Shown: positions 4,953 through 62,754, numbered from the stretch's first letter. The stretch is DNA of 64,000 bases from an uncultured Candidatus Saccharibacteria bacterium (GCA_964475745.1 CAYYXO010000002.1:11679-75678); one strand, 5' to 3'. Translations and numbers: made by a program. Notes: generated from the sequence alone by a model not told the origin.

Positions 4953-4978
4953 TAAAAATCGAATAAATAAAGAAAATA

Positions 4979-5203
4979 ATGGCTATTAAAATTACTAAAA
5001 AAGACAAAGAATCAACTTCAGCTTTTTTGTATAGAGCAAGTCAAGTTATACAAAAAAGTGGTGTTTTGATACAGGCAAATAAAAAGCAAACAAATAAAAA
5101 GAAAAATAACGAAAGAGGAAAGAAATTGTCAGCTCTCCATAAGATTAATTTTAAAAAAGATATCGAGTATAAGAAAAAGATGGGCTTGCCAATAAAAAAA
5201 TAA
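4979..5203 (+). CDS. small basic protein, possibly ribosomal protein S21
   Basis: 74 aa and very basic. The segment AFLYRASQVIQKSGVLIQANKK loosely resembles the S21 core ALRRFKRSxxKxGxLxExRKR. The assignment is tentative. Confidence 0.4.
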   Translation: MAIKITKKDKESTSAFLYRASQVIQKSGVLIQANKKQTNKKKNNERGKKLSALHKINFKKDIEYKKKMGLPIKK

Positions 5204-5207
5204 TTTT

Positions 5208-5660
5208 ATGGAACCAGAGTTTTTGTTATACAACAATAGCAAGGAAGAAAGAAGAGTTGTGAATTTTGTTAAAAAAGCAACCAGCAATATTTTAAAAGCA
5301 GAAAGTTTTTTAAAAATTCTAAAAAATAGAAAAATACAAAACTTCTCTTTTTCGATAATTTTAGAAGATAAAAAAACAACAAGGAGGTTAAATAGGGAAT
5401 GGCGTGGTAAAAACAAAATTCCAGATATATTATCTTTTTCTTTGTTAGAAAAAGATTTGTCAAAAACGATTTTGGGAGATATTTTTTTAACCCCAGAAAA
5501 GATAATAAAAGAATCAAAAGAAGGTCTGTTGATGGTTTTTCAGAAATTAATAATACATGGATTGCTTCATTTGCTAGGCTATGATCATGAAAAGGAAAAA
5601 AACTATTTGGAAATGAGCAAAGAAGAGACAAAAATTTTAAAAGAATTAATTAATAATTAA
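5208..5660 (+). CDS. ybeY: rRNA maturation endoribonuclease YbeY
   Basis: The HGLLHLLGYDH zinc-binding signature lies at the C-terminal end of a 150-aa protein. Confidence 0.8.
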   Translation: MEPEFLLYNNSKEERRVVNFVKKATSNILKAESFLKILKNRKIQNFSFSIILEDKKTTRRLNREWRGKNKIPDILSFSLLEKDLSKTILGDIFLTPEKIIKESKEGLLMVFQKLIIHGLLHLLGYDHEKEKNYLEMSKEETKILKELINN

Positions 5661-16853: not shown

Positions 16854-18995
16854 ATGAAAATAAAAATAAATAAGGTTTCTAGCAAGGTAGATAAAAAAGA
16901 AGAAAAAGCTATAAAAACTAATTTAACTAAAAAAGAAGGAAAGCCAAAAAAAGAAGTGGTTTTAAAAAATGAGGAAGCTAAAGACAATGGCTATACAGCT
17001 GAAAGTATTCATGTGCTTGAAGGCTTAGACCCGGTAAGAAGAAGGCCAGGCATGTATATTGGTTCAACTGGTATTTCTGGTTTGCACCATTTGGTTTGAG
17101 AAGTTTTTGACAATGCCATTGATGAAGCTTTGGGTGGTTTTTGTGATAATATAAAAATTGAATTATTAGAAAATAATCGCGTTAGTATTTTTGATAATGG
17201 TAGAGGTATTCCAGTTGATGTTCATAAACAAACAAAAAAATCCGCTTTAGAAACTGTTTTGACGGTTTTGCATGCTGGTGGTAAATTTGGTGGAGGATCT
17301 TATAAAATTTCTGGCGGTTTGCACGGTGTGGGTGTGTCAGTGGTAAATGCTTTGTCTAGCTACTTAAAAGCAGAAGTATACCGAGAAGGTTTTATTTATT
17401 GCCAAGAATATAGCTGTGGCAAGCCGTTAACAGAGGTCAAAAAGACTCAAACAAAAGAAAAAATAATGCATGGCACTCGGATTACTTTTGAGCCAGATGC
17501 AACCATTATGCAAGAAATAAATGTAGATTGAAAAACCATTTTAGATCATGTTAGGGAGCAAGCTTATTTGGTTAGAAAAATAAAAATAGATATTTCGGAT
17601 AAAAGAGACCCTGAAAATCAAAATGACTATGTTTTTTATTTTGAAAATGGTATTGTTGCCTTTCTAAGTTATTTGATAAAAGACCACAATACAAGGTCAA
17701 TACAGAAAAATATCTTTTTTACTGAAGAGACTTCCAATGAAATAGAAGTTGAGATTGCTTTGAGCTATACCACAGAGATTGAAACTTCCGAGTTTGCTTT
17801 TGCCAATAATATTCATACTCCAGAAGGAGGCATGCATTTAACCGGCTTTAGAGCCGCCTTAACAAGAGTTTTAAATGATTATTTAAAAAAGAACTATCCA
17901 AAAGAAAATTTATCACTAACAGGAGAAGATGTAAGGGAAGGCTTGATGGCAATTATTGCTGTAAAATTAAAAGAGCCTCAGTTTGAAGGTCAAACAAAGT
18001 CAAAACTTGGCAATCCAGAAGCAAGAGCTGCTGTTGAGCAAGTTATGTCAAAAGCATTTAGAGATTATTTAGAAAAGAACCCAGATGATGTAAAAAGAAT
18101 TTTAGAAAAATGTTTAGTTTCAGCTAAGGCAAGATCTGCTGCAAAGCTAGCAAGAGAAAATGTTTTGAGGAAAAGTGTTATGGAAAACACCACTTTGCCA
18201 GGAAAATTAGCTGATTGTATTAGTCGTAAAGCAGAAAATTCTGAATTGTTCATTGTTGAGGGCGATAGCGCTGGCGGCTCGGCCAAACAAGGAAGAGACC
18301 GTCATACTCAAGCCATTTTGCCTTTGCGAGGAAAAATTTTAAATGTTGAAAAGGCTAGATTAGATAGAATGATGACTTCAGAAGAAATTAAAGCGGTTAT
18401 TTTAGCTTTGGGAACTTCAATTGCAGAAGATTTTAATTTGAGCAAATTGCGTTATCATAAAGTTGTTTTGATGACTGATGCTGATGTAGACGGTGCTCAT
18501 ATTAGAACATTGCTTTTAACATTGTTTTATAGATATTTCTTAGGAGTAGTAGAAGGTGGATTCTTGTATGTTGCTCAGCCACCTTTGTATCGTATTCAAA
18601 GAGGTAAAGATTTCAGATATGCTTATACTGAAGGAGAGAAAGAAAAAATGATAGATGAGCTATTAAAGATAAAAGAGGCTAAAAAAGAAGCAGGAGCTAA
18701 AAAAGAAGAAAAAAATGAAGAAGAATCTCCAGAAGAAGTAGCAGAAGAAGTTTCAGACGAAATGAAAAAATACAAGGGATTAATAATCCAAAGATATAAA
18801 GGTTTGGGAGAAATGAACCCAGAGCAATTATGAGAAACAACTATGGATCCTAAAACAAGAATATTAAAAAAGATTACTATTGATGATGCTAAAGAAGCAG
18901 ACCGTTTATTTGACATTTTGATGGGAGAGGAAAGAATGCCTCGTAAAAAGTTTATCCAAGTGCATGCTAAAAAAGTTAAAAACTTAGATGTATAA
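16854..18995 (+). CDS. gyrB: DNA gyrase subunit B (about 713 aa, 3 in-frame TGA)
   Basis: [19 protein letters not shown] in the GHKL ATPase domain, the Toprim segment [15 protein letters not shown], and the C-terminal [20 protein letters not shown], where TGA sits on the invariant Trp. No gyrA follows. Confidence 0.92.
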
Positions 18996-22277: not shown

Positions 22278-22529
22278 ATAAAACAGTTAACTAATATTAA
22301 AAGTTCATATTCTTATGAATAAAAGAGATTCAAAAAACAGTTTAAAATTCAGGTGGTAAAAACACAGAGTTTTTCTTTGTGATTATACCGCTTGTCAAAA
22401 GCGGTTTTTTAATTCTCTAATAGTATTGGTTGATCTTTGAAAAAAGAATAAGGGTAAAATGTATTTTCATTGGAAAATTAAATAAAAAACTTAATTGAAG
22501 TTTCTTCAATGCTTTAATTAAGATGAGGA

Positions 22530-25590
<3,061 letters not shown>

Positions 25591-25637
25591 TATTAAAGTA
25601 TATATTTTATTCCTTATTCTTTTCAAAAAATTAAATT

Positions 25638-25746
25638 GGGCTGGTGATTAATTGTGATATGTCCCACTCGTTTCCATTTCGAACACGATAGTGAAAGTAT
25701 CATGACTCGATAATACTCGCAAGGGGAAAGTAGAGTTTGCCAGCCC
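25638..25746 (+). rRNA. rrf: 5S ribosomal RNA
   Basis: Helix I GGGCTGG/CCAGCCC and the conserved internal CCCACTCGTTTCCATTTCGAACACGATAGT. It sits directly after 23S. Confidence 0.8.
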
Positions 25747-25749
25747 TTA

Positions 25750-25796
25750 TATGTCGGCGGTCTTGGTTTTACCAAGACCGCCGGCTTTTTAATTAA
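25750..25796 (+). terminator. rho-independent terminator after 5S
   Basis: Long GC hairpin gccggcggtcttggt-ttta-ccaagaccgccggc followed by TTTTT. Confidence 0.7.
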
Positions 25797-25860
25797 AAAA
25801 CTTTTGCTTGTATTTTATTAAAAAATTTAGTATAATGTTTTTTAGTTAAGAAAAAATATT

Positions 25861-27177
25861 ATGTCAAAAAGATTTTTTAAACAAATAGTTGCTTCGTTTT
25901 TATCTTTGCTAGTTTTAGTTATAGTAGGATTTGGTTTTTCAAGATTATTTAAATCCAAGCCAGTTGTTTTTGATCCAAGAAAAGCAGAGATAGCTTCTTT
26001 AAATACTTTCCAATTTGAAAGTAACGCTTTTTGAATGACTCAAGGAGATCGTTATTTTGTTTATAGCCGAGTAACAAATCCAAATGATAATTGAGGAGCA
26101 AAGAGTTTTGACTTTGTTTTTGATTTTGTTCAGAGACAAGAAGAGCTAGAAAGATCCGTTAGAAAGATTTCTGGTAGAGACTATATTTTACCAAGACAGA
26201 CAAAATATATTTTAGCCTTTGTTGAAACTGCCAATCTTTCTTTTGACAGCATAAATTTTCAAGTCAATGACAGAAATGTTGACTGAGACAAACCTATGAG
26301 TGAAGAATTTTTAAACCCAAATTTATTTAGTATAACCAACATAAATCTAGCAACAGGTACAGGTCAAATTATTGCTCCAAGAGAACAAGAAAGCACTTTG
26401 TTTTATGAATTTAAAAAAGATTTAAAAATGGGAGACAAGAACGAAGATGTTTTTAATTTGCAATCTGTTTTAGCTCAAGATAGAGAAGTTTATCCAGAAG
26501 GGCAGATTCATGGAAGTTTTGATTTAGCAACTTACAAGGCAGTCATTAGATTTCAACATAAAAATGGCATCCATCCCCAAACAGGCATAGTGGATTATAA
26601 AACCAGAGAGATTTTAAACCAAATGTTTGGTGGGTCAAGAAGCGAAGCAATCCAAAGAGGCGGCTTTTCCTTTGATAGCAATTTACAATTTGGAGATGCT
26701 GGCTCTGAAGTAAGAGAATTACAAAGAGTTTTAGCACAAGATCCAACAGTTTATCCAGAAGCAAGAATTACCGGCAATTTTGACTATTTATTAAAGCGAG
26801 CTTTAGAGCGTTTTCAAGAAAAACATTCTTTGCGAATAACAGGCGAATTTGACACACCAACAAGAACAAAATTAAATTCAATTTTAACTTCTCAAGATGG
26901 TGCAGCTGAAATAGCTCCTGGCTTGACGGCAGAATTATCCTTTACAGTTTTTAATAATTCCAATACATCTTTTAGAGAAGTTGCTTTGGTTGGCTTTTTA
27001 TGTGATACTCAAAATAAAGTAGTTGCTGTTTCAAGAAATACTATTCAATTAATGTCTCAAAGGAACCAAAATGTTTCTTTTTCTTGAGTTCATAATCTAG
27101 GCGAAAATGTAAAAGTTTGTCCAAATGGGTTGCAAGCCTATACAAATGTTTTCGATGTCAATAATATTATAAGATAA
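25861..27177 (+). CDS. secreted/membrane-anchored protein with two peptidoglycan-binding (PG_binding_1-like) repeats (about 438 aa, several in-frame TGA)
   Basis: N-terminal TM segment and two repeats of LQxVLAQDxxVYPEgxIxGxFD...FQxK..(I/L)xxTG. The 25861 and 26296 segments are in one frame. Confidence 0.55.
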
Positions 27178-27178
27178 A

Positions 27179-28270
27179 ATGATGGTTTATTTAGTTAAGA
27201 ATTGAAAAATATTTGTAAGTGTTTTTTTGTTGACAACATTAAGTTTGCTTATTTTAGCAAGTTTAAGCATGAATCCAGTTGATAATTTAGATGCCTTTTA
27301 TAGGCAGCTAGTTTTTTTTGTGATAGCAACAGTTTTTCTAATATTTTTTGCAAAATTTGATTATAATTTGCTTAAAAATCATTCTTTTTTTATCCTAGGA
27401 AATTATTTTTTATGAAATTTTTCTTTGATATTGTTGTTAGTTTTATCTCCAGTTACAAGAGGTACTAATCGTTGGTTTGATCTAGGTTTTTTCAGTTTAC
27501 AGCCAGTTGAGTTTGTAAAATTAGCTTTGATTTTAGTACTAGTGAAGTTTTTATATCGACGCAATTTAGAAATTTGAAATTTAAAAAATATTATAATCAG
27601 TGGAATATTTTTAGGCATACCTTCGGTTTTGGTTTTGCTGCAACCAGACTTGGGCCCAGTAGTGGCAATGTTTTTAATTTGATTAATTTTACTTTTGGTT
27701 TGTGGGCTGAGGTTCAAGCATTTATTAATTATGATAGTGTCGGTTTCGTTGGTGGCTATAGTTGGTTTTAATTTTATACTTCACGATTATCAAAAAAATC
27801 GTTTAATTTCTTTTTTAAATCCAAACTTAGATCCCATGGGCTTAAATTATAATCAACTTCAGTCAATGATAACCATAGGGAGTGGTCGTTTTTGAGGCAA
27901 AGGTTTGGGTTGAGGAACTCAAACTCAATTACAATATTTGCCAGAAACAAAAACAGATTTTATTTTTGCTGCCATTTCAGAAGAACTGGGGTTTTTAGGT
28001 GGCACCATTATTTTAGGAAGTTTTTTGTTAATGTTTAGTTATTTTGCAGATGCTTTAACTATAGCAAAAAATAATTTTAGCAAGCTTATTATCATTGGTT
28101 TTGGAGTGAAAATATTTTTAGAAACAGTTATAAATATAGGCGTAAATGTTGGGTTTTTGCCTGTTGTGGGCACAGCATTGCCTTTTATAAGTGCTGGAGG
28201 ATCTCATTTAATTGTAGATTTTATTATGGTCGGTATAATTTTAAATATTGTTAATGGACGTAATTACTAA
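27179..28270 (+). CDS. SEDS-family peptidoglycan glycosyltransferase (RodA/FtsW-like; about 363 aa, 5 in-frame TGA)
   Basis: GSGRF-TGA-GKGLG-TGA-GTQTQLQYLPETKTDFIFAAISEELGFLGG is the SEDS signature. The ORF-track segments 27227, 27695 and 27938 are in one frame with the ATG at 27179. Confidence 0.8.
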
Positions 28271-28272
28271 TT

Positions 28273-29274
28273 ATGAAAAAAATAATTTTTGCTTTTGGTT
28301 TGCTTTTTGTTTTTAGTTTCGTTTATTTAAGTATTAATAAAAAAACTACTTTAGAAGAAAAGTATTTCATTGTTGAACCTAGGCAATCTTTTTTATCAAT
28401 AATTGATGATTTGCATAGCGAAGGAATAATTAAAAATAGATATTTTTTCAAAGTTTTTGTTTTTTTGAGAGGAAGTCATAGGGATTTTAAACCAGGCGAA
28501 TATTATTTTAATGGCAGTTATTCAATGAAAAATATTTTAGAAGAGCTAAAAAACAACAAAGGTATATCAGTAACCATAGTTGAAGGCTATAATATTTATC
28601 AAATAGAAAAATTGCTTTTAAAAAATGAAATACTTTCATCAAAAGGAGAGCTAGTAGATTTTCTAGTCAAAGATGTGGATCTGAAAAAATATCCTTTTTT
28701 AAGATATGTTCCACCAGAAAATAATCTAGAAGGATTTCTATATCCTAATACCTATTATTTTTTAAAAAATACTAGCATAGAAAGAGTGGTAGAAAACTTT
28801 TTAGATCATTTTAATGAAAATATTTATATATTAGTTAAAGATAAAATAGCTTTAGACGAGTTTTATTATAAGCTTATAAAGGCTTCTTTCTTGGAAAAAG
28901 AAATATATCATAAAGAAGATATGCCTTTAGCATTAAGCGTAATAAATAACCGTCTTGATATTGGTATGAGGTTGCAAATAGATGCTACTTTATGTTACCC
29001 AAAATTTATGTTACAATATGAAAAAGACCAGGTTTTAAGATGCAATCAGGTTTTAGCAAGCGATAAGCAGATGACATCAGAATATAACACTTATAGATAC
29101 GCTGGCTTAACCAGAACGCCAATATCAAATGTTAATTTTGAAACCTTTAAAACTGTTTTAGAAGAAATTACTTCAGATTATTTCTATTATATAACAACTC
29201 CTCAAGAAAAAGATACTGTTTTTGGTAAAACATTAGAAGAGCATAATCGCAATATACAAAAATATTTAAGATAA
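28273..29274 (+). CDS. mltG: endolytic murein transglycosylase MltG (YceG-like)
   Basis: N-terminal TM segment and a YceG domain with GYNIYQIEKLL and PENNLEGFLYPNTYYF, matching LEGYLFPDTY. Confidence 0.75.
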   Translation: MKKIIFAFGLLFVFSFVYLSINKKTTLEEKYFIVEPRQSFLSIIDDLHSEGIIKNRYFFKVFVFLRGSHRDFKPGEYYFNGSYSMKNILEELKNNKGISVTIVEGYNIYQIEKLLLKNEILSSKGELVDFLVKDVDLKKYPFLRYVPPENNLEGFLYPNTYYFLKNTSIERVVENFLDHFNENIYILVKDKIALDEFYYKLIKASFLEKEIYHKEDMPLALSVINNRLDIGMRLQIDATLCYPKFMLQYEKDQVLRCNQVLASDKQMTSEYNTYRYAGLTRTPISNVNFETFKTVLEEITSDYFYYITTPQEKDTVFGKTLEEHNRNIQKYLR

Positions 29275-29289
29275 TTTTATAAAATAATA

Positions 29290-29913
29290 ATGGAAAACAA
29301 AAACTTTATAATTTCAAAAATGAGTAATTTCCTAAGCAAACTACCAAGCATTGGCCCTAGGCAAGCGAAGCGTTTAGCTTACTACATAGCCAGATTAGGA
29401 GCTAATAATGTAGAAGAAATTGCCAAGCTATTTTGAGATATAGCAAACAATGTTGATGTTTGCGAAGATTGTTTTTCTGTTTTTGAAAGAGAATTCAAAG
29501 ATCAGAAAAAGTGCGCTATTTGCTTAAGCACATTAAGAAAAAAGAAATTTATTTGTGTTGTTGAAAAAGACACCGATCTCATTTCTGTTGAAAAAACAGG
29601 GAAGTATAAAGGAGTTTATTTTGTTTTAGGTGGGCTGTTAAATTCTTTTGAAACAAATATTGATGACAAAGTAAAAATTAAAGAATTAGTTGAGAAGATA
29701 AAACATTCATTAGAAAATAAAGAGCCAATTGAAGAAATTGTTTTGGCTTTAAATCTAACAGCAGAAGGTTGCTTGACTGCAGGAGAAATCAAAAAGCAAC
29801 TGCAACCCTATAATATTAAAATTACTCAGTTGGGAGTTGGTTTGCCTATTGGCAGCGAGGTTGAGTTTGCTGATACCGAAACATTGATAGAATCCTTTAA
29901 GAATAGGGGGTAA
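29290..29913 (+). CDS. recR: recombination protein RecR (about 207 aa, 1 in-frame TGA)
   Basis: HhH segment LPSIGPRQAKRLAYYIA, a C4 zinc finger (CEDC...CAIC) and a Toprim segment (ICVVEKDTD). Confidence 0.85.
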
Positions 29914-29976
29914 AGTTATGTTTTTTAAAGGGCCAAATAGCCCAGTATTTAGGGGAAAAAGTGTTAATAATAGCTA

Positions 29977-30005
29977 TTGACAAACGTGATTATTTTTGAT
30001 AATAT
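29977..30005 (+). promoter_or_regulatory. putative 16S rRNA promoter TTGACA, 17 nt, TGaTAATAT
   Basis: Read directly from the sequence, about 150 nt upstream of the 16S 5' end. It implies 16S is transcribed independently of 23S-5S. Confidence 0.5.
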
Positions 30006-30152
30006 ATAAAAGCAATACTTCAGTAGGAAGTGTTCTTTTAAACTTGAAAATTTAGATATACCACAACTAACAAATTCAAAGTTTTTTAGTTGCTCTAAAG
30101 GTTTATTTTTTTTGAATAAATTTTGTATATTTTATATACAGTTGTTTTTTTT

Positions 30153-31672
<1,520 letters not shown>

Positions 31673-31799
31673 TTTTAGGAATCTTTGTTTAATTTGATTC
31701 GTCAAATTAAACTATTCCAAGGTCGTCCCGAATATTTTTTAAATATTTTGGAACTTGTTAAACTAAACCTGCTGGAGCAACTAAAAAGTTTTGAATCAA

Positions 31800-31837
31800 A
31801 AAAGGATACTATTTATTTAGTGTCCTTTTTTGTTTTA
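31800..31837 (+). terminator. rho-independent terminator downstream of 16S
   Basis: Hairpin aaggatact-atttattt-agtgtcctt followed by TTTT. Confidence 0.55.
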
Positions 31838-31949
31838 GAAACGGTGTGTTGGCTTGCAAAATGACATCTTTTGTGGTAGAGTATCTATGTTTGAAATTTG
31901 CTGTTTAAAAGATGAAAAGGCCGGCGGGCATACGCAGGAGGAAATTTTT

Positions 31950-32426
31950 ATGAGTATTATTGATGATAGTTTGGTTCAGGAAGCGTTAGATTTATCTGGT
32001 CCGACAATTGAAACCATACTGAAAAACCCCAAGTCAACTTGGGGGCCAAAGTATGTCGAAGTTTTTATTATTGAGCGAGACGATGTTAGCGCATATACTG
32101 CCGTTATAGGAGAGAAAGAACCCTGGGATCCTTCCTGGGGAGAAGAGCTCGACTATGATTTTTTGTTTGTAGCAGAACAAAAGGCCAATGCTTCTCTTAG
32201 AGAAAAGGCGGACACGTCTTTTCTAATTGAGCAATCCCCATGGTTGCTTGAAGAAGGAGAATTTTTGTATCCCGGAGGCGTCTATTACGGCGGGGTTGCC
32301 GTTGGTGTTTCTGGAGCAAAAGGTATTGTCGATGAAGGAATAGCAAAAATCCTGATCAGTGCTATTGTTATGCTCGCAAAGCAGAAAACGCAAGAAAAGA
32401 TAAGAAATGATGATTACCAAGTGTAA
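31950..32426 (+). CDS. GlcG/DUF336 (heme-binding-like) family protein (about 158 aa), foreign-looking
   Basis: PGGVYYGGVAVGVSGAKGIVDEGIA matches the DUF336 GG..GAIGVSG...D..A signature. A canonical SD (CAGGAGGAAA) lies 7 nt before the ATG. All four Trp codons are TGG, it contains no TGA, and it is locally GC-richer. Confidence 0.55.
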   Translation: MSIIDDSLVQEALDLSGPTIETILKNPKSTWGPKYVEVFIIERDDVSAYTAVIGEKEPWDPSWGEELDYDFLFVAEQKANASLREKADTSFLIEQSPWLLEEGEFLYPGGVYYGGVAVGVSGAKGIVDEGIAKILISAIVMLAKQKTQEKIRNDDYQV

Positions 32427-32438
32427 CATCGAAAAAGC

Positions 32439-32475
32439 AAAAGGAACTTGGCGCGACGCCAAGTTCCTTTTTTGA
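32439..32475 (+). terminator. rho-independent terminator
   Basis: Hairpin aaaaggaacttggcg-cgac-gccaagttcctttttt. Confidence 0.65.
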
Positions 32476-32574
32476 TTTTGCAGCATATGTGCCAATATCG
32501 CCACCAGATATGGACAAAATAAGATTTTTATGATATAATATAAATAGAAAAATAGATTGAATTAGGAGGTAAAA

Positions 32575-32997
32575 ATGTATGAACTTTTTGAAAAATTATT
32601 AGAGGCCACCAAAAAGGGTCTTGTAAAATGGAAAAAAGTTGGAGAAAAAGTCGTTGTTCCAGGTTATACAGAAGGGTTTCAGCAATATGAAGCTATCATA
32701 GAAGAAAAACGAATAAAAACTTTTGTTCAGCTTAAGGCCGTTGTTAAAAAAAAGGGGTTATTTAATAAAAGAAGCGTCGAAGAGGCTAGTTGGGTGTTTG
32801 GTGTTTTTCTCAATGATTTTGCTCTTATAACCTCAAACGAAGAGGCTTTGAGGAGCGATATTATGGTAACGAGCTCCTTTCATGAGCTCAAAATGGTAGA
32901 TTTCTTTTATTCGCTAGAGGAGGCAGTTCGAGAAAAAGATCTACTCGAGTCCATTGACGCAGATCTTACTGAATTATTGTCCTTGTCGATTAAGTAA
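32575..32997 (+). CDS. hypothetical protein (140 aa), foreign-looking
   Basis: A perfect SD (TAGGAGGT) lies 8 nt upstream and an extended -10 (TGATATAAT) further upstream. It contains no TGA, and Trp is TGG. Confidence 0.4.
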   Translation: MYELFEKLLEATKKGLVKWKKVGEKVVVPGYTEGFQQYEAIIEEKRIKTFVQLKAVVKKKGLFNKRSVEEASWVFGVFLNDFALITSNEEALRSDIMVTSSFHELKMVDFFYSLEEAVREKDLLESIDADLTELLSLSIK

Positions 32998-33024
32998 ATA
33001 ATCACAAAAACCCTACAACGAAGC

Positions 33025-33062
33025 GTAGGTAGCTCAATTAATCTTAATTGGGCTTTTTTATT
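33025..33062 (+). terminator. rho-independent terminator
   Basis: Hairpin agctcaattaa-tc-ttaattgggct followed by TTTTT. Confidence 0.5.
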
Positions 33063-33246
33063 TCCCTTTTTTGATTTAGAACTTGTTTTTTGTTTTAAAA
33101 TTTAGTATATTTTATTCAAAAGAAAGTTTCGATAAAAGCTTAAGCGATGGCGGCAGTAGTAGCGGAAAATAATAAAATCAAAGTTGTTTTGAAAAAGGAG
33201 GGGCAATTGCATGTCCCTCTATTAAATCAAAATAAAATTTATAATC

Positions 33247-34446
33247 ATGAAGTGGAAAATTATAAAAAATGATAATCCATATAAAGAATATTCTGATTTT
33301 GAATATTTGTGGGTTGATATTTTTTTAAGTAAAGGCTTATTATATAGACAAGATTTAGTTAAAATTTTAAAGCATTTTGACATAAATTTTGTTGAAAAAA
33401 ATTGAGAAGAAAATATTTCTTTAGGAGAAATGGGCACGGTGCTGCATGGAGATGTTAAAAAAGATGTGTTGTTGCCGTTTCTACAAAATTATATACATCA
33501 AAATTACCCAAAGATATTTGGCTTTGAAGAGGCAAGTAAAATATATAATGCTTTGATAAAAATAGACAGTCAGTTAAATATTATAAAACTTTGGTTTGCT
33601 TTTGAATGCGATAAATACGATAAAAATTTAAAAAGTTTTTTGGAAGAAAAACTCCTTGACTTGACAAAGGGAGCTAGAGTTAAAGATAATGCTGAAATTG
33701 GGTTAAGCGAAGAAAAAGATAATTATTGTCAATGATGTGTGGTTGATATATTAACTCAAATGTATAGATTATCTTTTATAAACGAAGACATCAAAAAAAA
33801 TTATTTTGAAGAAAATTATGATGAATTTCGTTATCAATGATTGATAATTATTTTATGCAGAGAATTATTGCCAAGAAAAGATATGTTGGCATTTTTAAAG
33901 CATTATGACATGCGGTTTTTTGGAATAAATTGAAAAAATAGAATTAAATTAGAAGAAATGGGTTGGGTAATTTTGCATGATGTTGAAGAAGATGATCTTT
34001 TTGATTTTTTGTCAAATTATTTAAAAGAAAAATATCCAAAACTTTTTTCTTTTGAGGAAGCATGTAAAATTTTTGACGCATTGTTTTATTTAAAAAATGA
34101 AATTCAAATTATGGAAGTGTGGTTAAATATGGCTGATGAATCTCCGTATGTTTCTTACATGAGAGAGCAACTCGATTATTTAAAAGAGCAAAGAGAAGGG
34201 GGGGTTTTTGACGAATCGCCAAGCATGGAAGAAAAAAGAAAAGAAACAGGTCTTTTTAGAAGAACAGCGCAAGATGTTATTTTGGCTTTGTATGAATTAG
34301 CCATGAAAAACTATTTTAAAAAGAAACAAAAGGCAAGTCCTAGTCATCTTTATGGCAATGAAAGCTCTAAAGGCCATGATGACTCGGCAGCGGTTAAATG
34401 CATGCAAGAATATCTATCAAGAAAAAAAGCTGAAAATGACTTTTAA
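33247..34446 (+). CDS. hypothetical protein with an internal tandem duplication of a roughly 130-aa domain (about 399 aa, 6 in-frame TGA)
   Basis: One frame runs from the ATG at 33247 through ORF segments 33430 and 33958. Unit 1 reads ...EEMGTVLHGDVKKDVLLPFLQNYIHQNYPKIFGFEEASKIYNALIKIDSQLNIIKLWF... Unit 2 reads ...EEMGWVILHDVEEDDLFDFLSNYLKEKYPKLFSFEEACKIFDALFYLKNEIQIMEVWL... The units are clearly homologous. A basic, Ser-rich C-terminal tail follows. Confidence 0.5.
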
Positions 34447-34606
34447 TGCTCAGTATGATTATTTATTGATAAAGTAAATATTCACAGAGTAAACAATCGA
34501 CAAGCAAATGACTTTTTCTAAATTAACCCTGTAAATAATAGCTTTTTTGGAGGGGGTTGATTTTTAAACTTATTTTGACTATACTTTATTTAGTTAAAAA
34601 AGAAGT

Positions 34607-35317
34607 ATGGCAACAACAAAAAGGTATTTTTACTCAAATGAGTTTTATCATATTATTTTAAGAGGTATTGATGGAAAAACTTTGTTTTTAAACGACCAAG
34701 ACTATTTTAGAATGATCAATGGCATGTTTGTTTTTAATGATAAAGGGTTAATAGGTTCTTCTTTTCGACACAAAGGATGTCCAAATGATAGATTTGAAAG
34801 AAAAAGAAAAGGGCCTTTGGTAAATATACATGCTTTTTGCTTAATGCCAAATCACATTCATTTTTTGTTGGAACAAAAGGTTGAAGGGGGTCTGTCAAAA
34901 TTTATGTTAAAAATAGGAGCCGGCTATGCGGCTTTTTTTAATAATAAATATAAAAGAAAAGGCCATTTGTTTCAAAGCAGATTTAAGTCGGTTTTAATAA
35001 AAGATGATGATCAGTTGGCAGTAATTTTTTCTTATATCCATACAAATCCGGTTTCTATAATAGAACCTAATTGAAAGGAAAAGGGTATAAAAGATTTTAA
35101 AAAAGTTAGAAATTTTATTGAAACCTATAGGTGATCAAGTTATGCTGATTATTTAGGTAACAAAAATTTTCCAAATTTAACAAAAAGAAATTTTATGCTT
35201 CAAGATCAAAATCAACGCGCTTGAAGAAATTTCGTAGAAGACTGGCTAAAGTATAAGGCAGAGTTGTTTGAGCGTTTTTTTAAAGACAAAGGCAAAGATA
35301 GTTATTTATTGGAGTAA
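34607..35317 (+). CDS. IS200/IS605-family Y1 (HuH) transposase-like protein, RAYT/COG1943-like (about 236 aa, 3 in-frame TGA)
   Basis: HuH motif LMPNHIHFLL, the catalytic-Tyr region FSYIHTNPV, and C-terminal YR-TGA-SSYADY matching the WSSY box. It uses TGA for Trp, so it is host-adapted. No tnpB is adjacent. Confidence 0.7.
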
Positions 35318-35346
35318 AAATCTGAAAAAATTAAAAGCTAAAGAAA

Positions 35347-35375
35347 GAAAGGACGACCCCAGGGGTCGTCCTTTT
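35347..35375 (+). terminator. rho-independent terminator after the transposase-like gene
   Basis: Hairpin aggacgacccc-a-ggggtcgtcct followed by TTTTT. Confidence 0.65.
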
Positions 35376-35539
35376 TGAAAAAAGCAGCACTGTTTTGTCC
35401 ATTATAGCACTGGCGATGCTCATTGGGTGATTTTTCCAAAAAAGCTTCGCCTCTTTGTAAAGTTCACTATCGGTTATATCCATTTCGTCATCTTTTTTAA
35501 TGTTCTTTCGATAAAGTTGATTATATTATAGCCTTTTTT

Positions 35540-35790
35540 ATTAAATATGTCAACACCATGCTTAGCGAGTTAAATTTCAAAGCCCATCATGGTGTTGGCC
35601 ATCATTTCAGCTTAATCAATTACAACGTAGCAAGGCAACGTTGTATATTCTCCTTTGATTAATCAGGCCTAACGCTACCTGGTAACGGAGGGAGGGAGTG
35701 GTTTGTGGGGATATTTGGTGGTTGTTTTATATTACGTAGCGGGAGGGGATCTTGGTGTTATTTTAAATTATGCAATGCGAGTGGTTGTAT
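35540..35790. other. GC-richer structured non-coding element with inverted repeats and G-tracts
   Basis: Inverted repeats caacaccatg...catggtgttg (35551..35596) and tacaacgt...acgttgta (about 35618..35645). A G-tract cluster follows: GGAGGGAGGGAGTGG..GTGGGG...GCGGGAGGGG (35690..35745). It contains no ORF. Confidence 0.35.
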
Positions 35791-35841
35791 AAATGATATA
35801 AATATGCTAAAATTGATTTAAATAGCTTAATTGTATTATTT

Positions 35842-36783
35842 ATGAATGATATATCAAAAAAAAAGGAAGAGTTTCTTTTAAAAATTATGAGTTCAACAAA
35901 CGCTGATAAATTTAAAAGATATTTAGGAAGCCCATTGCGATATGCAGGAGGTAAAACATTGGCTGTCGGGTATATTGTAAAATTGTTGCCTAATAAAATA
36001 GATAGAGTTGTTTCGCCTTTTTTAGGGGGGGCTTCAGTTGAAATTGCCTTGGCAAAAGAGCTGGGACTTGAAGTTATCGGGTATGACATTTTTGACCTAC
36101 TGATAAATTATTGGAAGAACCAAATTAATAATCCTGAGCAGCTGTATCAGAATTTAAGAATATTGGCAAACACAAAAAATAAATATCAAGAGGTAAAAAA
36201 TATTTTAAAAAATATATGAAATAAAAATGATGGCCTGTTGAAAAATGATTTTTCTAGTTTAGAATTGGCAACTTATTATTATTTTAATCATAACTTAAGC
36301 TATGGACCTGGATTTTTGGGATGGATGTCGTCAAATTATTTAGATAATAAAAAATATGATTCAATGTTGAAAAAAGTTAAGAATTTTAAGGTTTGTAATT
36401 TTCATGTTCGTACATCAAGTTTTGAAGAAGCAATCCCGATGCATAAAAAAGATTTTTTATATTTGGACCCGCCTTATTATTTAGACGGAGACAGTAAAAT
36501 GTTTAAAGGGATATATCCAATGAGAAATTTTCCAATACATCACAATGGCTTCAACCACGAATTATTATTTAATTTGTTAAAAAATCATGATGGCGGTTTT
36601 ATTTTGTCATATAATGATTGCGAATGGGTAAGAAAAAAATATAAAAATTTTAAAATTATAGATATTGAATGGCAATATACAATGGGACAAGGGGAGACAA
36701 GAATAGGTAAAAACAGATTGTCAAGAAATTATGACAATAACAATGTAAAAAAATCTCATGAATTATTAATTATAAATTATTAA
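35842..36783 (+). CDS. Dam-family (D12-class) N6-adenine DNA methyltransferase (about 313 aa, 1 in-frame TGA)
   Basis: N-terminal SAM motif LRYAGGKTL (a Dam motif I-like FxGxG/YAGGK) and the catalytic motif IV LYLDPPYY (DPPY). The 35842 and 36238 segments are in one frame across the TGA at 36217. Confidence 0.8.
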
Positions 36784-36798
36784 ATATAAAATAGCGAT

Positions 36799-37398
36799 AT
36801 GTTAATTAAAAAAGTAAAAACAGCTTTTAAAATAGCAGACGTTGAGCTTGTAAAGAATACAACAAAATTAAAATTTAATTATTTGTCCACCATAAAAGAT
36901 GAAAATAATAAAATTTTACCAAAGGACATTCTTACTAAAAATTACGCAAGAGTTTATCTAATTGTTGTTGACGGAGAGATAAAAAAAATAGGGGCGTCGC
37001 AAGATAAGGGGGGAATGAAGGGGACGTTGAGTATTTATAAAGATGGTGGCGTAAAAGGAAGGCCAAGCATAAGAAGTTTCGGCATCTGGTATTTTTTGTA
37101 TCGTACTGCGATGCAAGGTAAAAAAATTGAGTTTTATATGATATATCATGACAATTTCAATTTTGAGATTAAGGGTTTGTTACAAACATATCAAACAACA
37201 TTAGCGAGCATAAGCTGTAAGCTTATTGAATATTATTGTGTTAAAGATTATTTGTCGATGGAAAACAATCATTATCCAGACTGGAATGTTCAAGAACAAG
37301 CAATGGATTGGCCAGAAGAGGTTAAAAGAGAACATTCTAGAATAACAGCAGGTAGTTTAAATAATAAATCTAAGAGAAAAAAAATGAAAATGGCATAA
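36799..37398 (+). CDS. hypothetical protein, possible PD-(D/E)xK nuclease partner of the MTase (199 aa)
   Basis: It lies directly downstream of the Dam-family MTase. LPKD-(15 aa)-VVDGEIKK fits a PD...(D/E)xK spacing. No other family was recognised. Confidence 0.35.
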   Translation: MLIKKVKTAFKIADVELVKNTTKLKFNYLSTIKDENNKILPKDILTKNYARVYLIVVDGEIKKIGASQDKGGMKGTLSIYKDGGVKGRPSIRSFGIWYFLYRTAMQGKKIEFYMIYHDNFNFEIKGLLQTYQTTLASISCKLIEYYCVKDYLSMENNHYPDWNVQEQAMDWPEEVKREHSRITAGSLNNKSKRKKMKMA

Positions 37399-37412
37399 CA
37401 ATAAATGATTTA

Positions 37413-37754
37413 ATGCCGTTTCTTAAAAGCGACCAAAATCCAAATGGATCTATAATTAGTTTGTCGGATTTGTATCTGTCTATTTGTTATGGCATGAGAT
37501 ATGAACCAGCAAGTGGTTATTGACTTTCTAACGCTGATTTTTATAGTTTTACCCCTGATACAGATAAAATAGGCAGTCAAATAAGGTATTATCTTCAAGT
37601 TCCAGATATTGAAGAAATTATGGAACCAATAGAGCCTGAAGATGAAGGCAATGAAGAGGAGGAGGAAGGGGATGGCGAAGAAGGGGATTTTGAGGAAGAA
37701 TTGTTGTACGAAGAAGGTGGCCTTGAGGAAGAAGAAAATGAAGAGACTGAATAA
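37413..37754 (+). CDS. small protein with an extremely acidic C-terminal tail (about 113 aa, 1 in-frame TGA)
   Basis: MPFLKSDQNPNGS...GYWLSNADFYSF...IEPEDEGNEEEEEGDGEEGDFEEELLYEEGGLEEEENEETE. About 35 of the last 45 residues are D or E. It is not in the ORF track because of its internal TGA. Confidence 0.4.
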
Positions 37755-37778
37755 AATAGTAAAAAAGATGAATTGTGA

Positions 37779-37812
37779 AAAACACTGGCTTTAAAAGCCA
37801 GTGTTTTTTTGT
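37779..37812 (+). terminator. rho-independent terminator
   Basis: Hairpin aaacactggctt-taaa-agccagtgttt followed by TTTTT. Confidence 0.65.
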
Positions 37813-37862
37813 TTTCTTTGAAATTATGCTATAATAGGAGCATATAAAGTTAATATTACATT

Positions 37863-38830
37863 ATGGACAATTGTCAAATAAAATTTTGTCAAAACAATAA
37901 GCTGATTAATAAGTTTTATTTTCTGGTTAATTTAGCTAAGGTGGCTAAGTGAAAAGATAAATCCATGGGGATTGATTTTTTTTCTGGCTATAAAATAAAT
38001 AAAATTTCTAAAAAGGAAATTGAAAAATTTAAGAAAATTTTCAAAAAAGTAGAATATTGAGATATAGAAAGAGTTTTTTACCAAGCTAACACTGAAGCAG
38101 GCGCTTTAAAAGGATTGTCAAAATATCTTGCAAAAAGTGATATATTGGAATTGAAAAAAATATTTAATTTTTTTGAAAAAGACTTTCTAACTCTTTATAA
38201 TAGTATTGATAAAAAACATAGCAAAGAATTAAAGGATCTATGAAAAAAGACTGAATACCAGAAGATTTTAAAAAAGCTGATTTATTTATTTGGAGACAAA
38301 AAGAAAAAATATAATCTAAAGGTAAAGATAGTATTTGAAAAAAACTTTGATGGTGTTTTTAGAGGCACAGTTTATGACGAAAATATTGTTTTGGAGGTGG
38401 CTGACTTAAAAGATAGATTTGATTTGTTGGAAAATATTATTTTTGTTTTGCTACATGAAATTACTCATGTATTTGTAAAAAGTAATGAGCTTATAAAATT
38501 TACAATAAATAAACTCGGCATTACTCGAAATACTGTTAATGTGATTAAAAAATATAATATTGATTTTGATAATTTTGCAGAAGAAATTTTGATCAGAATG
38601 TTTCTTACAAGAGGGTATTTTCGTGATAAAAACAAAGAACGTTTTTTAAATAATAAAAAAATAACTTGAAAACATGCAATAAATCAAAATCAAATACAAT
38701 TGCATTGTTTTAGTATGATGCTATATAAAAGTATGCATAAAGATGTTGAAAAATATGTTAAAAAAAACAAGAAAATTGACGATGAATTTTTATCAAAAAT
38801 GATAAAAATAATTAAAAGCAAGGTTAAATA
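37863..38830 (+). CDS. hypothetical HExxH-motif (putative zinc metallopeptidase-like) protein (about 322 aa, 3 in-frame TGA)
   Basis: LLHEITHVFV is an HExxH motif in a Lys-rich protein. It has an ImmA/IrrE- or SprT-like flavour, but the family is not identified. Confidence 0.45.
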
Positions 38831-38958
38831 AAAAGAGCGGAGAAGGCAATTTTTTTGGTTAAATTAGGCTAGTAAATGCTAGCTTTTTGAGGTATTGCAT
38901 AAAATTAAAATTGTTGATACATTGAGGTTGGCTTAATAAAAATTTTAAAAAATGTATC

Positions 38959-39573
38959 ATGATTTTATCTGACAAGGATATTAAAAAAGCCATTAAAGAT
39001 GGCGACTTGGTTTTTCGAGAGAAGCTTTCTTCTGAGCAGATTGAAGCAGCGTCAATTGATTTAAAATTGGGCCCAATTTTTAAAACTTTTAAGCATACTA
39101 GTGAGTCGTTATTGGATTTGAAAAAAGGAATTGACTTTGGTAAAATCATGAGCACAGAAGTGGTGGATAAAAAGAAGGGGTTTATTTTGCATCCAAATAG
39201 ATTTGTTTTGGTGAGCACAAAAGAATATATGAAGCTGTCAAACAAAGTGGCGGCAAGGGCAGAGGGCAAAAGTAGTTTAGCAAGAATGGGACTTTTGGTG
39301 CATACAGCTGGTTTTATTGATCCGGGATTTGAAGGAACAATTACTTTGGAAATAAGTAATCAGGCTGAAATTCCTATAGTGCTTTATCCTGATATGTATA
39401 TTTGTCAGATTGCTGTTGAATCTTTGTCTAGTCCATGTGAATTTTCATATAAAGAGAGAAAAAATCACTTTATCAAGACTCGGAAGGGCCAAAAGAGGCA
39501 AGTGCTCAAAACTTATTTAAGAAGAAAAAATAAAGATAAAAAAGCCAGGTTAACTTTTAACCTGGCTTTTTGA
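38959..39573 (+). CDS. dcd: dCTP deaminase
   Basis: 204 aa with a dUTPase-fold and AASIDLKLG...GFIDPGFEGTITLEISN typical of Dcd. Confidence 0.75.
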   Translation: MILSDKDIKKAIKDGDLVFREKLSSEQIEAASIDLKLGPIFKTFKHTSESLLDLKKGIDFGKIMSTEVVDKKKGFILHPNRFVLVSTKEYMKLSNKVAARAEGKSSLARMGLLVHTAGFIDPGFEGTITLEISNQAEIPIVLYPDMYICQIAVESLSSPCEFSYKERKNHFIKTRKGQKRQVLKTYLRRKNKDKKARLTFNLAF

Positions 39574-39638
39574 TGCTTGCTTTTTATTTTTTTATCTGTT
39601 AAAATATTTTTATATTAATAGTAATAAATTTTATTATT

Positions 39639-62423: not shown

Positions 62424-62538
62424 ATATTTTGTTTAATTGAATATATAAAAGTATAACAAAGATGAGGATAAAAAACAATATTGAAAACATCCATTAATTG
62501 TGGTATAATGTAAGCAGATACTTGAAAAGGAGGTAAAA

Positions 62539-62670
62539 ATGTTTTGGAAGGGGTTGGCTGTTTTAGTTTGTTTCCATTTTGTCAATTTGTTGTTAAAAGT
62601 TGTCTCAAAAGGAAAAAAAGATATGAGATCTAAAAGATTGATCGAAGATATCAAAAGATTTAAGAAATAA
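62539..62670 (+). CDS. small hypothetical protein (43 aa) with a perfect Shine-Dalgarno
   Basis: GAAAAGGAGGTAAAAATG gives an AAGGAGGT SD 7 nt upstream. There is one hydrophobic helix and a weak hairpin plus T-run downstream. Confidence 0.3.
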   Translation: MFWKGLAVLVCFHFVNLLLKVVSKGKKDMRSKRLIEDIKRFKK

Positions 62671-62754
62671 ACCGTATTTTGAAGAAAAATGCGGTTTGTT
62701 TTTTTGAATAAATTTGATACAATTTATTTAATAAAATAAATTATAAATATTTGT

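Follow-up and report, generated by a model that had tools for sequence, protein, structure and literature searches.

The interval between the 16S rRNA gene and dcd, at about 31.85-38.9 kb of the window (the whole 64,000-nucleotide stretch analysed, from an uncultured Candidatus Saccharibacteria bacterium), is best explained as a mosaic, lineage-variable stretch between two conserved anchors that contains an imported restriction-modification pair. We estimate the probability of this reading at about 0.6. The left anchor would consist of the 16S gene, its trailer and the unit of gene g1, inherited together, and the right anchor of the dcd-ftsE-ftsX-ABC block. The g2-g4 block, which runs from the g1 terminator to a minus-strand promoter unit, would be either inserted here or lost in a related genus. 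The methylase g6 would modify adenine in a site on the cell's own DNA and the nuclease g7 would cut incoming DNA lacking this methylation; the pair would have come from a standard-code organism, with the drift of its Trp codons from TGG to TGA only begun. g9 would be a lineage-native HExxH piece. An imported restriction-modification defence cassette in a variable stretch would be ordinary biology.

The host and the conserved flanks

The host is a tiny Patescibacteria-type bacterium, probably an episymbiont, with a genome of about 30% GC in which UGA encodes Trp. TGA is a sense codon: where GyrB has TGA codons, the aligned E. coli protein has aromatic residues, among them the invariant Trp of NPEQLWETTMDP. 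The background share of TGG among Trp codons is 0.285. The anti-Shine-Dalgarno (anti-SD) sequence has been lost from the host 16S rRNA, and SD motifs are generally lacking; among the approximately 48 window genes of at least 100 aa, AGGAGG precedes the start codon of g1 and g2 only.

The 16S rRNA gene (30151-31676) flanks the interval on the left, and its conserved trailer contains a terminator-like hairpin (31789-31840, plus strand; inverted repeat I19). g1 (31950-32426, plus strand) follows, encoding a 158-aa protein. It is preceded by a promoter read in the sequence (31854-31882, plus strand; TTGCAA, 17 nt, TAGAGT, with TG upstream) and followed by a two-way terminator hairpin (32439-32471). 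The AF2 model of g1 had a pLDDT of 89.9. In the Foldseek search its top 16 PDB matches were all of the DUF336 type (probability 1.0, TM 0.48-0.65) and included EfgA, ORFY-DUF336, a putative haem-binding protein (4nkp), Ybr137w, PduO-C and NahX, which bears out the GlcG/DUF336-like assignment made in the initial annotation. The predicted fold is thus like that of the DUF336/GlcG/EfgA/PduO-C family, and g1 also has a GGV...VGVSG-type loop. It differs in that no Pfam or NCBIfam sequence profile matched at E values up to 0.1 and its identity to the matched structures was 13-19%. Its own family is so far confined to candidate-phyla bacteria, where all nine homologues among 5.8 billion proteins were found.

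We compared the left side with one contig of 2.9 kb, L084, which belongs to a different genus (16S 89.9% identical) and has the same arrangement of 16S, promoter, g1 and terminator. The promoter is base-for-base identical in L084, the spacer from 16S to g1 is 83% identical, and the 24-nt g1 leader with AGGAGG is 100% identical. The terminator is 96% identical and homology ends after it, marking the left edge of the variable part. In both genera g1 uses TGG only. Of the 49 window genes, g1 (GC z +4.3, codon-usage z -4.5) and g2 (GC z +2.0, codon-usage z -4.1) are the strongest compositional outliers, and all six Trp codons of the two genes together are TGG. In seven standard-code candidate-phyla loci, however, the GC content of g1 homologues was 0.47-0.59 against 0.36-0.43 for their surroundings, and an SD-like motif preceded the gene in most of them. 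High GC and the SD are thus traits of the whole g1 family rather than marks of recent transfer. g1 belongs to the 16S flank, as a unit inherited with 16S within the family, and the most foreign-looking gene of the interval is its best conserved one.

On the right, dcd (38959-39618, plus strand; dCTP deaminase, PF22769, 4e-44) has a frameshifted 3' end. The block dcd-ftsE-ftsX-ABC is syntenic in two related contigs, L001 and L002, which served for the comparison on this side. Their homology to the window begins 74 nt upstream of dcd (for L001, at window position 38885), where the dcd promoter and leader (38885-38958, plus strand) form the right edge of the variable part. Both contigs end just upstream of dcd, and no relative's contig covers the whole 16S-dcd interval.

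Orphans, a Y1 HUH gene and the middle intergenic region

g2 (32575-32997, plus strand) is a GC-richer, SD-led orphan of 140 aa with TGG only. It lies between a promoter-like site (32511-32539, plus strand; TGGACA, 17 nt, TATAAT, TG-extended) and a terminator-like hairpin (33031-33054, plus strand), so that promoter-like and terminator-like sites flank both g1 and g2. No match to g2 was found in Pfam, NCBIfam, PHROG or PADLOC, its cluster contains itself alone, and no viral relative was found. These results agree with the initial description of g2 as an unknown and of both genes as GC-richer, SD-bearing and TGG-only with promoters and terminators of their own.

g3 (33247-34446, plus strand) is an orphan of 399 aa with two copies of a domain of about 100 aa (44% identity over 102 aa, E 6e-30). 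The tandem duplication noted earlier was confirmed; the description of the gene as TGA-rich was not, as it has four TGA and five TGG codons and its TGA share is below background. Its codon usage is host-typical, and a search for homologues, including viral ones, found none.

g4 (34607-35317, plus strand; 236 aa) is a solitary Y1 HUH gene of the IS200/RAYT-like type, matching Y1_Tnp (PF01797, E 2.7e-10) as first proposed. Like RAYT and IS200-type TnpA proteins, it has a Y1 HUH domain with HUH and Tyr motifs (HIH in LMPNHIHFLL, and YIHTNP). Unlike them, it scored 51.6 bits against the NCBIfam RAYT model NF047646, under the cutoff of 80, and has a C-terminal extension of about 90 aa. We searched for terminal hairpins, element ends and REP flanks at g4 and for a paralogue within the window, and found none; g4 is probably immobile.

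g2, g3 and g4 each have their own promoter-like site, and this block of about 2.9 kb is absent from the corresponding site of L084. There, the g1 terminator is directly followed by a minus-strand ORF whose promoter and leader are homologous to 35492-35554 of the window (94% over 35 nt, the only such match in the window). Either the block was inserted here or it was deleted in L084; genomes whose 16S genes are 90% identical are in any case expected to differ by many rearrangements.

The window counterpart of this unit is a perfect promoter (TTGACA, 17 nt, TATAAT; 35553-35525) with a leader (35492-35554, minus strand). A short transcript or a 50-aa ORF of doubtful coding status (35331-35483, minus strand) would start from it, and the L084 counterpart is an unrelated 64-aa membrane ORF. 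A perfect 13-bp GC-rich hairpin (35348-35374) is a two-way terminator. On the plus strand, a non-coding leader (35548-35792) has two hairpins. It also includes a G-rich tract (35679-35758), within which lies GGAGGGAGGGAG, and several small ORFs, among them a hydrophobic one of 29 aa (35703-35792, plus strand). G makes up 44% of the tract, a value about 4.8 sd higher than the mean, and no other non-coding stretch ranks with the most G-rich segments of the sequence. Fold z-scores were -0.1 and -1.8 for the two strands of a 246-nt G-rich piece and -2.1 for the 173-nt leader, in whose fold the G tract pairs with CUCCUUUG. No Rfam family matched the leader. The G-rich non-coding element of the initial annotation is real, and the structure ascribed to it is weakly supported by these predicted folds.

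The methylase-nuclease operon and g9

g6 (35842-36783, plus strand; the start may instead be 35770) encodes a Dam-family (D12, alpha-type) N6-adenine DNA methyltransferase, as previously annotated. It matched PF02086 over the full length (4e-35) and PADLOC MTase_II (1.5e-113), classed as type II, and the catalytic motifs SPFLGGASVE (the FxGxG-like SAM motif) and LDPPYY (DPPY) were read in its sequence. It is followed after 15 nt by g7 (36799-37398, plus strand) and, after a further 14 nt, by g8 (37413-37754, plus strand), a 113-aa orphan with a poly-Glu/Gly acidic tail, the poly-acidic protein of the initial annotation. A terminator (37777-37809, plus strand) closes the operon. A sub-threshold tRNA-like hit at 37758-37831 was not a tRNA and corresponded to this terminator hairpin. 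The cluster of g8 holds itself alone.

g7 is a GIY-YIG nuclease that probably acts as the restriction enzyme alongside g6. Its family profile matched R.Hpy188I (3oqg, E 2e-7) and T4 EndoII (2wsh, E 7e-5), the protein matched the endonuclease family phrog_1111 (7e-12), and the GIY-YIG-type residues Y53, K63, I64-G65, E144 and N163 are conserved. The profile matches to the two GIY-YIG enzymes ruled out the earlier PD-(D/E)xK assignment. All genes in the row listed by the initial annotation were otherwise present; only this identity and the TGA richness of g3 had to be revised.

We infer that g6-g7 form a type II restriction-modification pair with a restriction function. As in the GIY-YIG type II systems R.Hpy188I/M.Hpy188I and R.Eco29kI, an N6-adenine methyltransferase gene lies beside, and on the same strand as, that of a small nuclease of about 180-200 aa. 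The present pair differs in that the match of g7 to R.Hpy188I is remote, the acidic ORF g8 is co-transcribed, and the host reads UGA as Trp. Site avoidance in the host was not detected for GATC, TCNGA or GATATC.

An adjacent pair in the same order is present on L090, a standard-code contig of 27.6% GC, with 69.5% (g6) and 65.7% (g7) identity; g8 is not present there. L090 is provisionally Bacteroidota-like, the sole basis being the C-terminus of a neighbour gene, read as a T9SS-type sorting domain. At the Trp positions conserved between the two pairs, the window genes have TGG at seven of eight and TGA at one (given the background TGG share, P is about 9e-4; the counts are small). Because just one of the eight codons has drifted from TGG to TGA, import from a standard-code organism would have been recent; its direction and timing are putative. 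g6-g7 is the sole part of the interval with positive evidence of import. Adjoining homologues also occur in the T4-like cyanophages S-PM2, Syn30, S-P4 and Sf-CH11 (methylase 44-47%, nuclease 33-38% identity), where, however, the nuclease comes first, the reverse of the g6-g7 order, and the context is a phage genome. Nucleases of the g7 type were also found without a methylase, some beside ORF6N/KilA-N-type genes.

g9 (37863-38831, plus strand) encodes the 322-aa HExxH protein noted earlier. Its single homologue (55% identity) lies on a contig of 23.6% GC and has six in-frame TGA codons and no TGG. HEITH of g9 corresponds to HEIVH in the homologue and a downstream EE is also kept, in two sequences in all. 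No Pfam or NCBIfam profile and no PDB structure matched, and the AF2 model (pLDDT 50) was too poor to use. g9 is probably a metallopeptidase, and it looks native to the lineage because its sole homologue carries the six in-frame TGA codons. Any functions of g2, g3, g8 and g9, and of the leader with its G-rich tract, are putative.

One island or several histories

Interval genes had a TGG:TGA ratio of 19:13, against 37:93 elsewhere in the window (Fisher p 0.0016). The interval genes differ in history and Trp-codon choice tracks this, in agreement with the differing residence times first proposed from the mixed TGA usage. The compositional profile showed g1 and g2 as the only outliers, with g3, g4, g6, g7 and g8 within about 2 sd of the window and g9 of lower GC; the codon usage of g4, g8 and g9, like that of g3, is host-typical. 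Six of the eight genes were thus typical in composition. Direct and inverted repeats bounding the interval were searched for, and no significant ones were found. No integrase or tRNA was found in the interval (the tRNAs of the window lie only at 43.5 and 58.6 kb), and its only recombinase-like gene is g4. No presence/absence variant was found within the population, the organism's other contigs being 100% identical.

We therefore consider it very unlikely that the whole interval is one island integrated beside 16S, possibly via the Y1 HUH gene, that later gained host-adapted genes, as the initial annotation had proposed. The overall TGG excess, the occurrence of both a Y1 HUH gene and a restriction-modification pair in the interval, and the break of two related species' contigs just upstream of dcd would all fit such an island. 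As in classical genomic islands, a variable stretch here harbours a recombinase-like gene as well as a defence system. Here, however, tRNA, integrase, repeats and a uniform foreign composition are lacking and g4 has no element ends; g1 is syntenic with 16S in another genus, L084 has likewise kept the promoter unit that lies midway through the interval, and TGA serves as a sense codon in the g9 relative as well. Synteny of the whole interval with uniform composition, which the initial annotation had set against an island, was found for g1 only. Its suggestion of an integration hot spot at the rRNA flank was not upheld either, as nothing at the interval shows site-specific integration; classic integration sites are tRNA and tmRNA genes, not rRNA flanks.

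A history without any import, in which the interval is vertical with fast-evolving, lineage-specific genes and its odd codons reflect protein composition and chance, is unlikely, although it accounts for the family traits of g1 and for the host-typical codon usage of g3, g4, g8 and g9. Trp counts per gene are small, and in a lineage with such sparse sampling orphan status says little. What argues for import is the restriction-modification pair, with TGG at seven of eight conserved Trp positions, the same cassette in cyanophages, and 66-70% identity to an adjacent standard-code pair, a value for which the cross-phylum baseline was not measured and the donor phylum is guessed. The cyanophage neighbours and the confinement of PHROG matches to the methylase and nuclease, together with the profile match to T4 endonuclease II and the homologues that adjoin ORF6N/KilA-N-type genes, could instead mean that a phage or another mobile element left the right half behind as a remnant, comprising the leader, g6-g8 and possibly g9, with a DNA-degrading or homing nuclease and a protective methylase rather than a cellular defence. 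However, the interval has no further phage-like gene; g2 and g3 were searched and gave no viral relatives; the neighbour of the L090 pair looks like a cellular secreted-protein gene; and the order and spacing of g6-g7 fit a standard two-gene restriction-modification operon. We thus regard a remnant as distinctly unlikely and favour the mosaic with an imported pair.

The mosaic account leaves unexplained why, with the anti-SD sequence missing from the 16S rRNA, g1 has kept both an SD and the exclusive use of TGG in two genera. The complete conservation of the leader and the TGG-only g1 in both genera point to selection rather than to a fading foreign signature. It is conceivable, though highly improbable, that g1 and g2 form a special class of UGA-free, SD-led genes, which might include a few small ORFs with an SD as well, for instance the one behind the G-rich tract. 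If so, an SD-dependent translation start independent of the anti-SD could exist; alternatively, such genes may be kept translatable in the standard code because they pass to and from, or are expressed by, partners or hosts that use that code.

Genetic code and translation start

The uninterrupted ORFs of the window, whose GC content is approximately 30%, require that TGA is a sense codon. In an alignment of gyrB (16854–18995) to E. coli GyrB, the TGA codons fall on W, F, and Y residues, one of them the invariant Trp of NPEQLWETTMDP. This shows that UGA encodes Trp and rules out code 25 (UGA = Gly). The first UGA-to-Trp lineages of Patescibacteriota were described in the class Minisyncoccia in a 2026 preprint (10.64898/2026.05.24.727570), and UGA = Trp in a peptidoglycan-making, Patescibacteria-type window fits those lineages. 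The relatives that we found are labeled as Parcubacteria-type or candidate-phyla bacteria, so a lineage of this kind is the probable source of the window.

The rRNA genes of the window are unlinked. The 23S (22522–25582) and 5S (25640–25745) genes are followed by 16S (30151–31676) in an unusual order that keeps to one strand throughout (22522–31676), with four cell-envelope and recombination genes (PG-binding protein, RodA/FtsW, MltG, and RecR) between 5S and 16S. The 3′ tail of 16S (31663–31676) is GGUGAAACAUUUCUUUU, in which the anti-Shine-Dalgarno (anti-SD) motif CCUCC is replaced by UUUCU, and L084, a contig from an independent relative of another genus, carries the same tail. Part of the Parcubacteria is known to have lost the anti-SD motif (PMC9297842). 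Among the window genes of at least 100 aa, an SD-like motif precedes only g1 and g2, the first two genes of the interval between 16S and dcd. It is absent from the other genes of this size, approximately 46 in number, in keeping with the loss of the anti-SD.

A small free-standing gene at 62481–62700 is another rare SD-led gene, consisting of a promoter (TTGAAA-17-TATAAT), the motif AAGGAGGT, a 43-aa membrane-type ORF (MFWKGLAVLVCFHF...) whose sole Trp codon is TGG, and a terminator. In the window at 5382–5660, the motif AAGGAGGT also lies 5′ of a YbeY-like ORF (HGLLHLLGYDHE) with a putative start, for which the ORF list gave instead a doubtful 155-aa ORF on the minus strand (4949–5416).

Composition of the interval and the 16S flank

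We compared the composition of the interval genes with that of the 41 genes elsewhere in the window. In GC, GC3, and codon usage alike, g1 and g2 stood out most, and the remaining six were ordinary, except for the low GC of g9. The Trp codons of the interval were also distinct (TGG:TGA, 19:13 versus 37:93 elsewhere; Fisher p 0.0016). The excess of TGG is due to g1 (4:0), g2 (2:0), g6 (4:1), and g7 (3:0).

g1 (31950–32426; 158 aa under code 4) gave no match in the profile search. Its predicted structure was confident (pLDDT 89.9), and the top of the list of PDB matches consisted only of structures of the DUF336/GlcG-type fold. L084, which is from another assembly and whose 16S is 89.9% identical to that of the window, carries the 3′ part of 16S, a spacer of 83% identity, and the promoter that precedes g1 in the window. 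These are followed by a 24-nt leader that matches the one of the window in full, AGGAGG included, then by a homologue of g1 (58% aa identity; 5 TGG, 0 TGA; GC 0.40) and the same terminator. Because the whole series from 16S to the terminator is repeated there, g1 is part of a conserved 16S flank. At seven standard-code candidate-phyla loci, none of them adjacent to 16S, the homologues of g1 likewise have a GC content clearly above that of the flanking sequence, and most have an SD-like motif. The foreign look of g1 is therefore a trait of its family, and the GC-rich, SD-led, TGG-only state is old and conserved.

Downstream of g1, the gene g2 (32575–32997) is an orphan, as is g3 (33247–34446), which contains an internal duplication of 102 aa at 44% identity; neither had a homologue in the protein collection or the viral contigs. 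g3 had been described as TGA-rich, which its codons contradict (4 TGA versus 5 TGG). g4 (34607–35317) has a Y1 HUH domain that scored below the RAYT cutoff, and the window showed neither element ends or REPs at g4 nor another copy of it. In L084, the g1 terminator is followed by a minus-strand ORF for a 64-aa membrane protein, whose promoter and leader are homologous to positions 35492–35554 of the window, which hold a perfect TTGACA-17-TATAAT promoter, unique in the window. Thus, the g2–g4 block (2.9 kb) sits between two elements that adjoin in L084. At 2290–2898 of L084, 3′ of g1, a unit comprising the terminator and the 64-aa membrane ORF occurs in tandem, at least twice. This could reflect either a genuine duplication or a repeat introduced by assembly where the contig ends.

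The probable restriction-modification operon and its flanks

The three genes g6 (35842–36783, with an alternative start at 35770), g7 (36799–37398), and g8 (37413–37754) form one operon, as g8 starts 14 nt past g7 and a terminator lies behind it. g6 encodes a Dam-family methylase, and g8 is an orphan with an acidic tail. g7 matched the endonuclease family phrog_1111, and a profile of 61 sequences of its family matched R.Hpy188I and T4 endonuclease II. It is thus a GIY-YIG nuclease, and its initial annotation as PD-(D/E)xK-like was wrong.

The closest g7 homologue (65.7% identity) lies directly 3′ of a methylase 69.5% identical to g6, in the same order as in the window, on a standard-code contig of 27.6% GC from which g8 is absent. 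This contig is provisionally called Bacteroidota-like, since the end of a neighboring gene was read as a T9SS-type sorting domain. Homologous nuclease and methylase genes are also neighbors, in reverse order, in T4-like cyanophages, and some members of the nuclease family have no methylase partner. The g6–g7 pair has eight Trp positions, all of which the standard-code homologue shares, and they are encoded in the window by seven TGG codons and one TGA (P approximately 9e-4 at a background TGG share of 0.285). From these codons, we read the pair as a probable import from a standard-code donor that has since taken a first step of adaptation; the single change from TGG to TGA is enough to prevent reading of the methylase under the standard code. 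In a UGA = Trp genome, TGG:TGA at conserved Trp positions serves as a simple marker of standard-code imports, which here flags g6–g7. None of the sites GATC, TCNGA, GANTC, and GATATC was depleted; TGCA was (z −4.4), which alone identifies no recognition site.

The non-coding piece between g4 and g6 (35318–35841) contains a perfect 13-bp hairpin (35348–35374) that ends g4 and, on the opposite strand, a short transcript from the conserved minus-strand promoter. To its right are two hairpins and a G-rich tract (35679–35758; 44% G), the sole non-coding stretch among the most G-rich segments of the window. The tract contains GGAGGGAGGGAG located 4–6 nt 5′ of TTG and GTG starts, which open ORFs of 29 aa (hydrophobic) and 38 aa. 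It was predicted to pair with the upstream CUCCUUUG (z −2.1), and longer pieces around it folded no better than shuffled sequence. No Rfam family came near threshold, either in this element or elsewhere in the interval. The G-rich piece may serve the restriction-modification operon as a regulated leader, or it may be a gene for a small peptide.

A candidate tRNA remnant at 37758–37831 (25.4 bits; cutoff 29) was rejected, as the g8 terminator makes up its supposed anticodon arm and its other arms are weak AU pairs. g9 (37863–38831) contains HEITH, and its single known homologue (55% identity) has HEIVH and retains the downstream EE. The predicted structure of g9 (pLDDT 50) was too poor for a fold search. 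PADLOC models did not match g2, g3, g8, or g9.

The dcd side and the history of the interval

On the other side of the interval, the dcd genes of two relatives, L001 and L002, are 85% and 83% identical to that of the window, and both contigs share the order dcd-ftsE-ftsX-ABC with it. Both end at or just before dcd; homology to the window begins 74 nt 5′ of dcd and is preceded in L001 by a different terminator. In three more distant relatives (L004, L005, and L007), dcd follows nusG-rplK, lying between rplK and the gene that comes after it in the cluster. In the window, the region compared for this cluster is 298–2899, and dcd is at 38959, before ftsEX as in L001 and L002. The dcd neighborhood has thus been rearranged, dcd having moved in this lineage.

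Synteny of the whole interval was sought in two scans. A scan of the genome collection with dcd yielded close relatives, all on short contigs that end at dcd. A scan of metagenomes with the g1 family yielded the same organism and, beyond it, only distant homologues away from 16S. Contigs of the same organism, retrieved by exact-protein look-ups, were 100% identical, and no variant junctions were seen among them.

The initial annotation described the gene content largely correctly, apart from the points on g3 and g7, and explained it as an accessory island at an rRNA hot spot in which TGA usage reflects residence time. This island reading is not supported. The hallmarks of such an island were absent, and the search for flanking repeats and REPs gave only AT-rich chance matches. 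The most foreign-looking gene, g1, is the most conserved. The proposed meaning of Trp-codon choice held for the restriction-modification pair (7/8 TGG) but not for g1, where it is misleading, and this calls for caution in composition-based island calling in these lineages. We favor, with a probability of approximately 0.6, that the interval consists of pieces with separate histories rather than one island. Gene content of this sort is ordinary in such a bacterium, and the result alone, a small restriction-modification cassette with some orphans in a variable part of a Patescibacteria genome, is routine. Beyond the account of the interval as a mosaic, a perfect SD and TGG-only Trp in g1 (and g2) are a puzzle in a lineage without an anti-SD, and the fact that the SD has persisted there, perfectly conserved, poses a small question on translation start in the group.

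The 3′ end of dcd (39440–39620) has a frameshift at an A-run (approximately 39,455–39,465), approximately 27 codons short of the normal end, and another frame encodes ...KKSLYQDSEGPKEASAQNLFKKKK*, which matches L002. The shifted frame, read under code 4, continues through a terminator hairpin (39539–39571). The sequence at the frameshift is identical in two other assemblies of the same organism.
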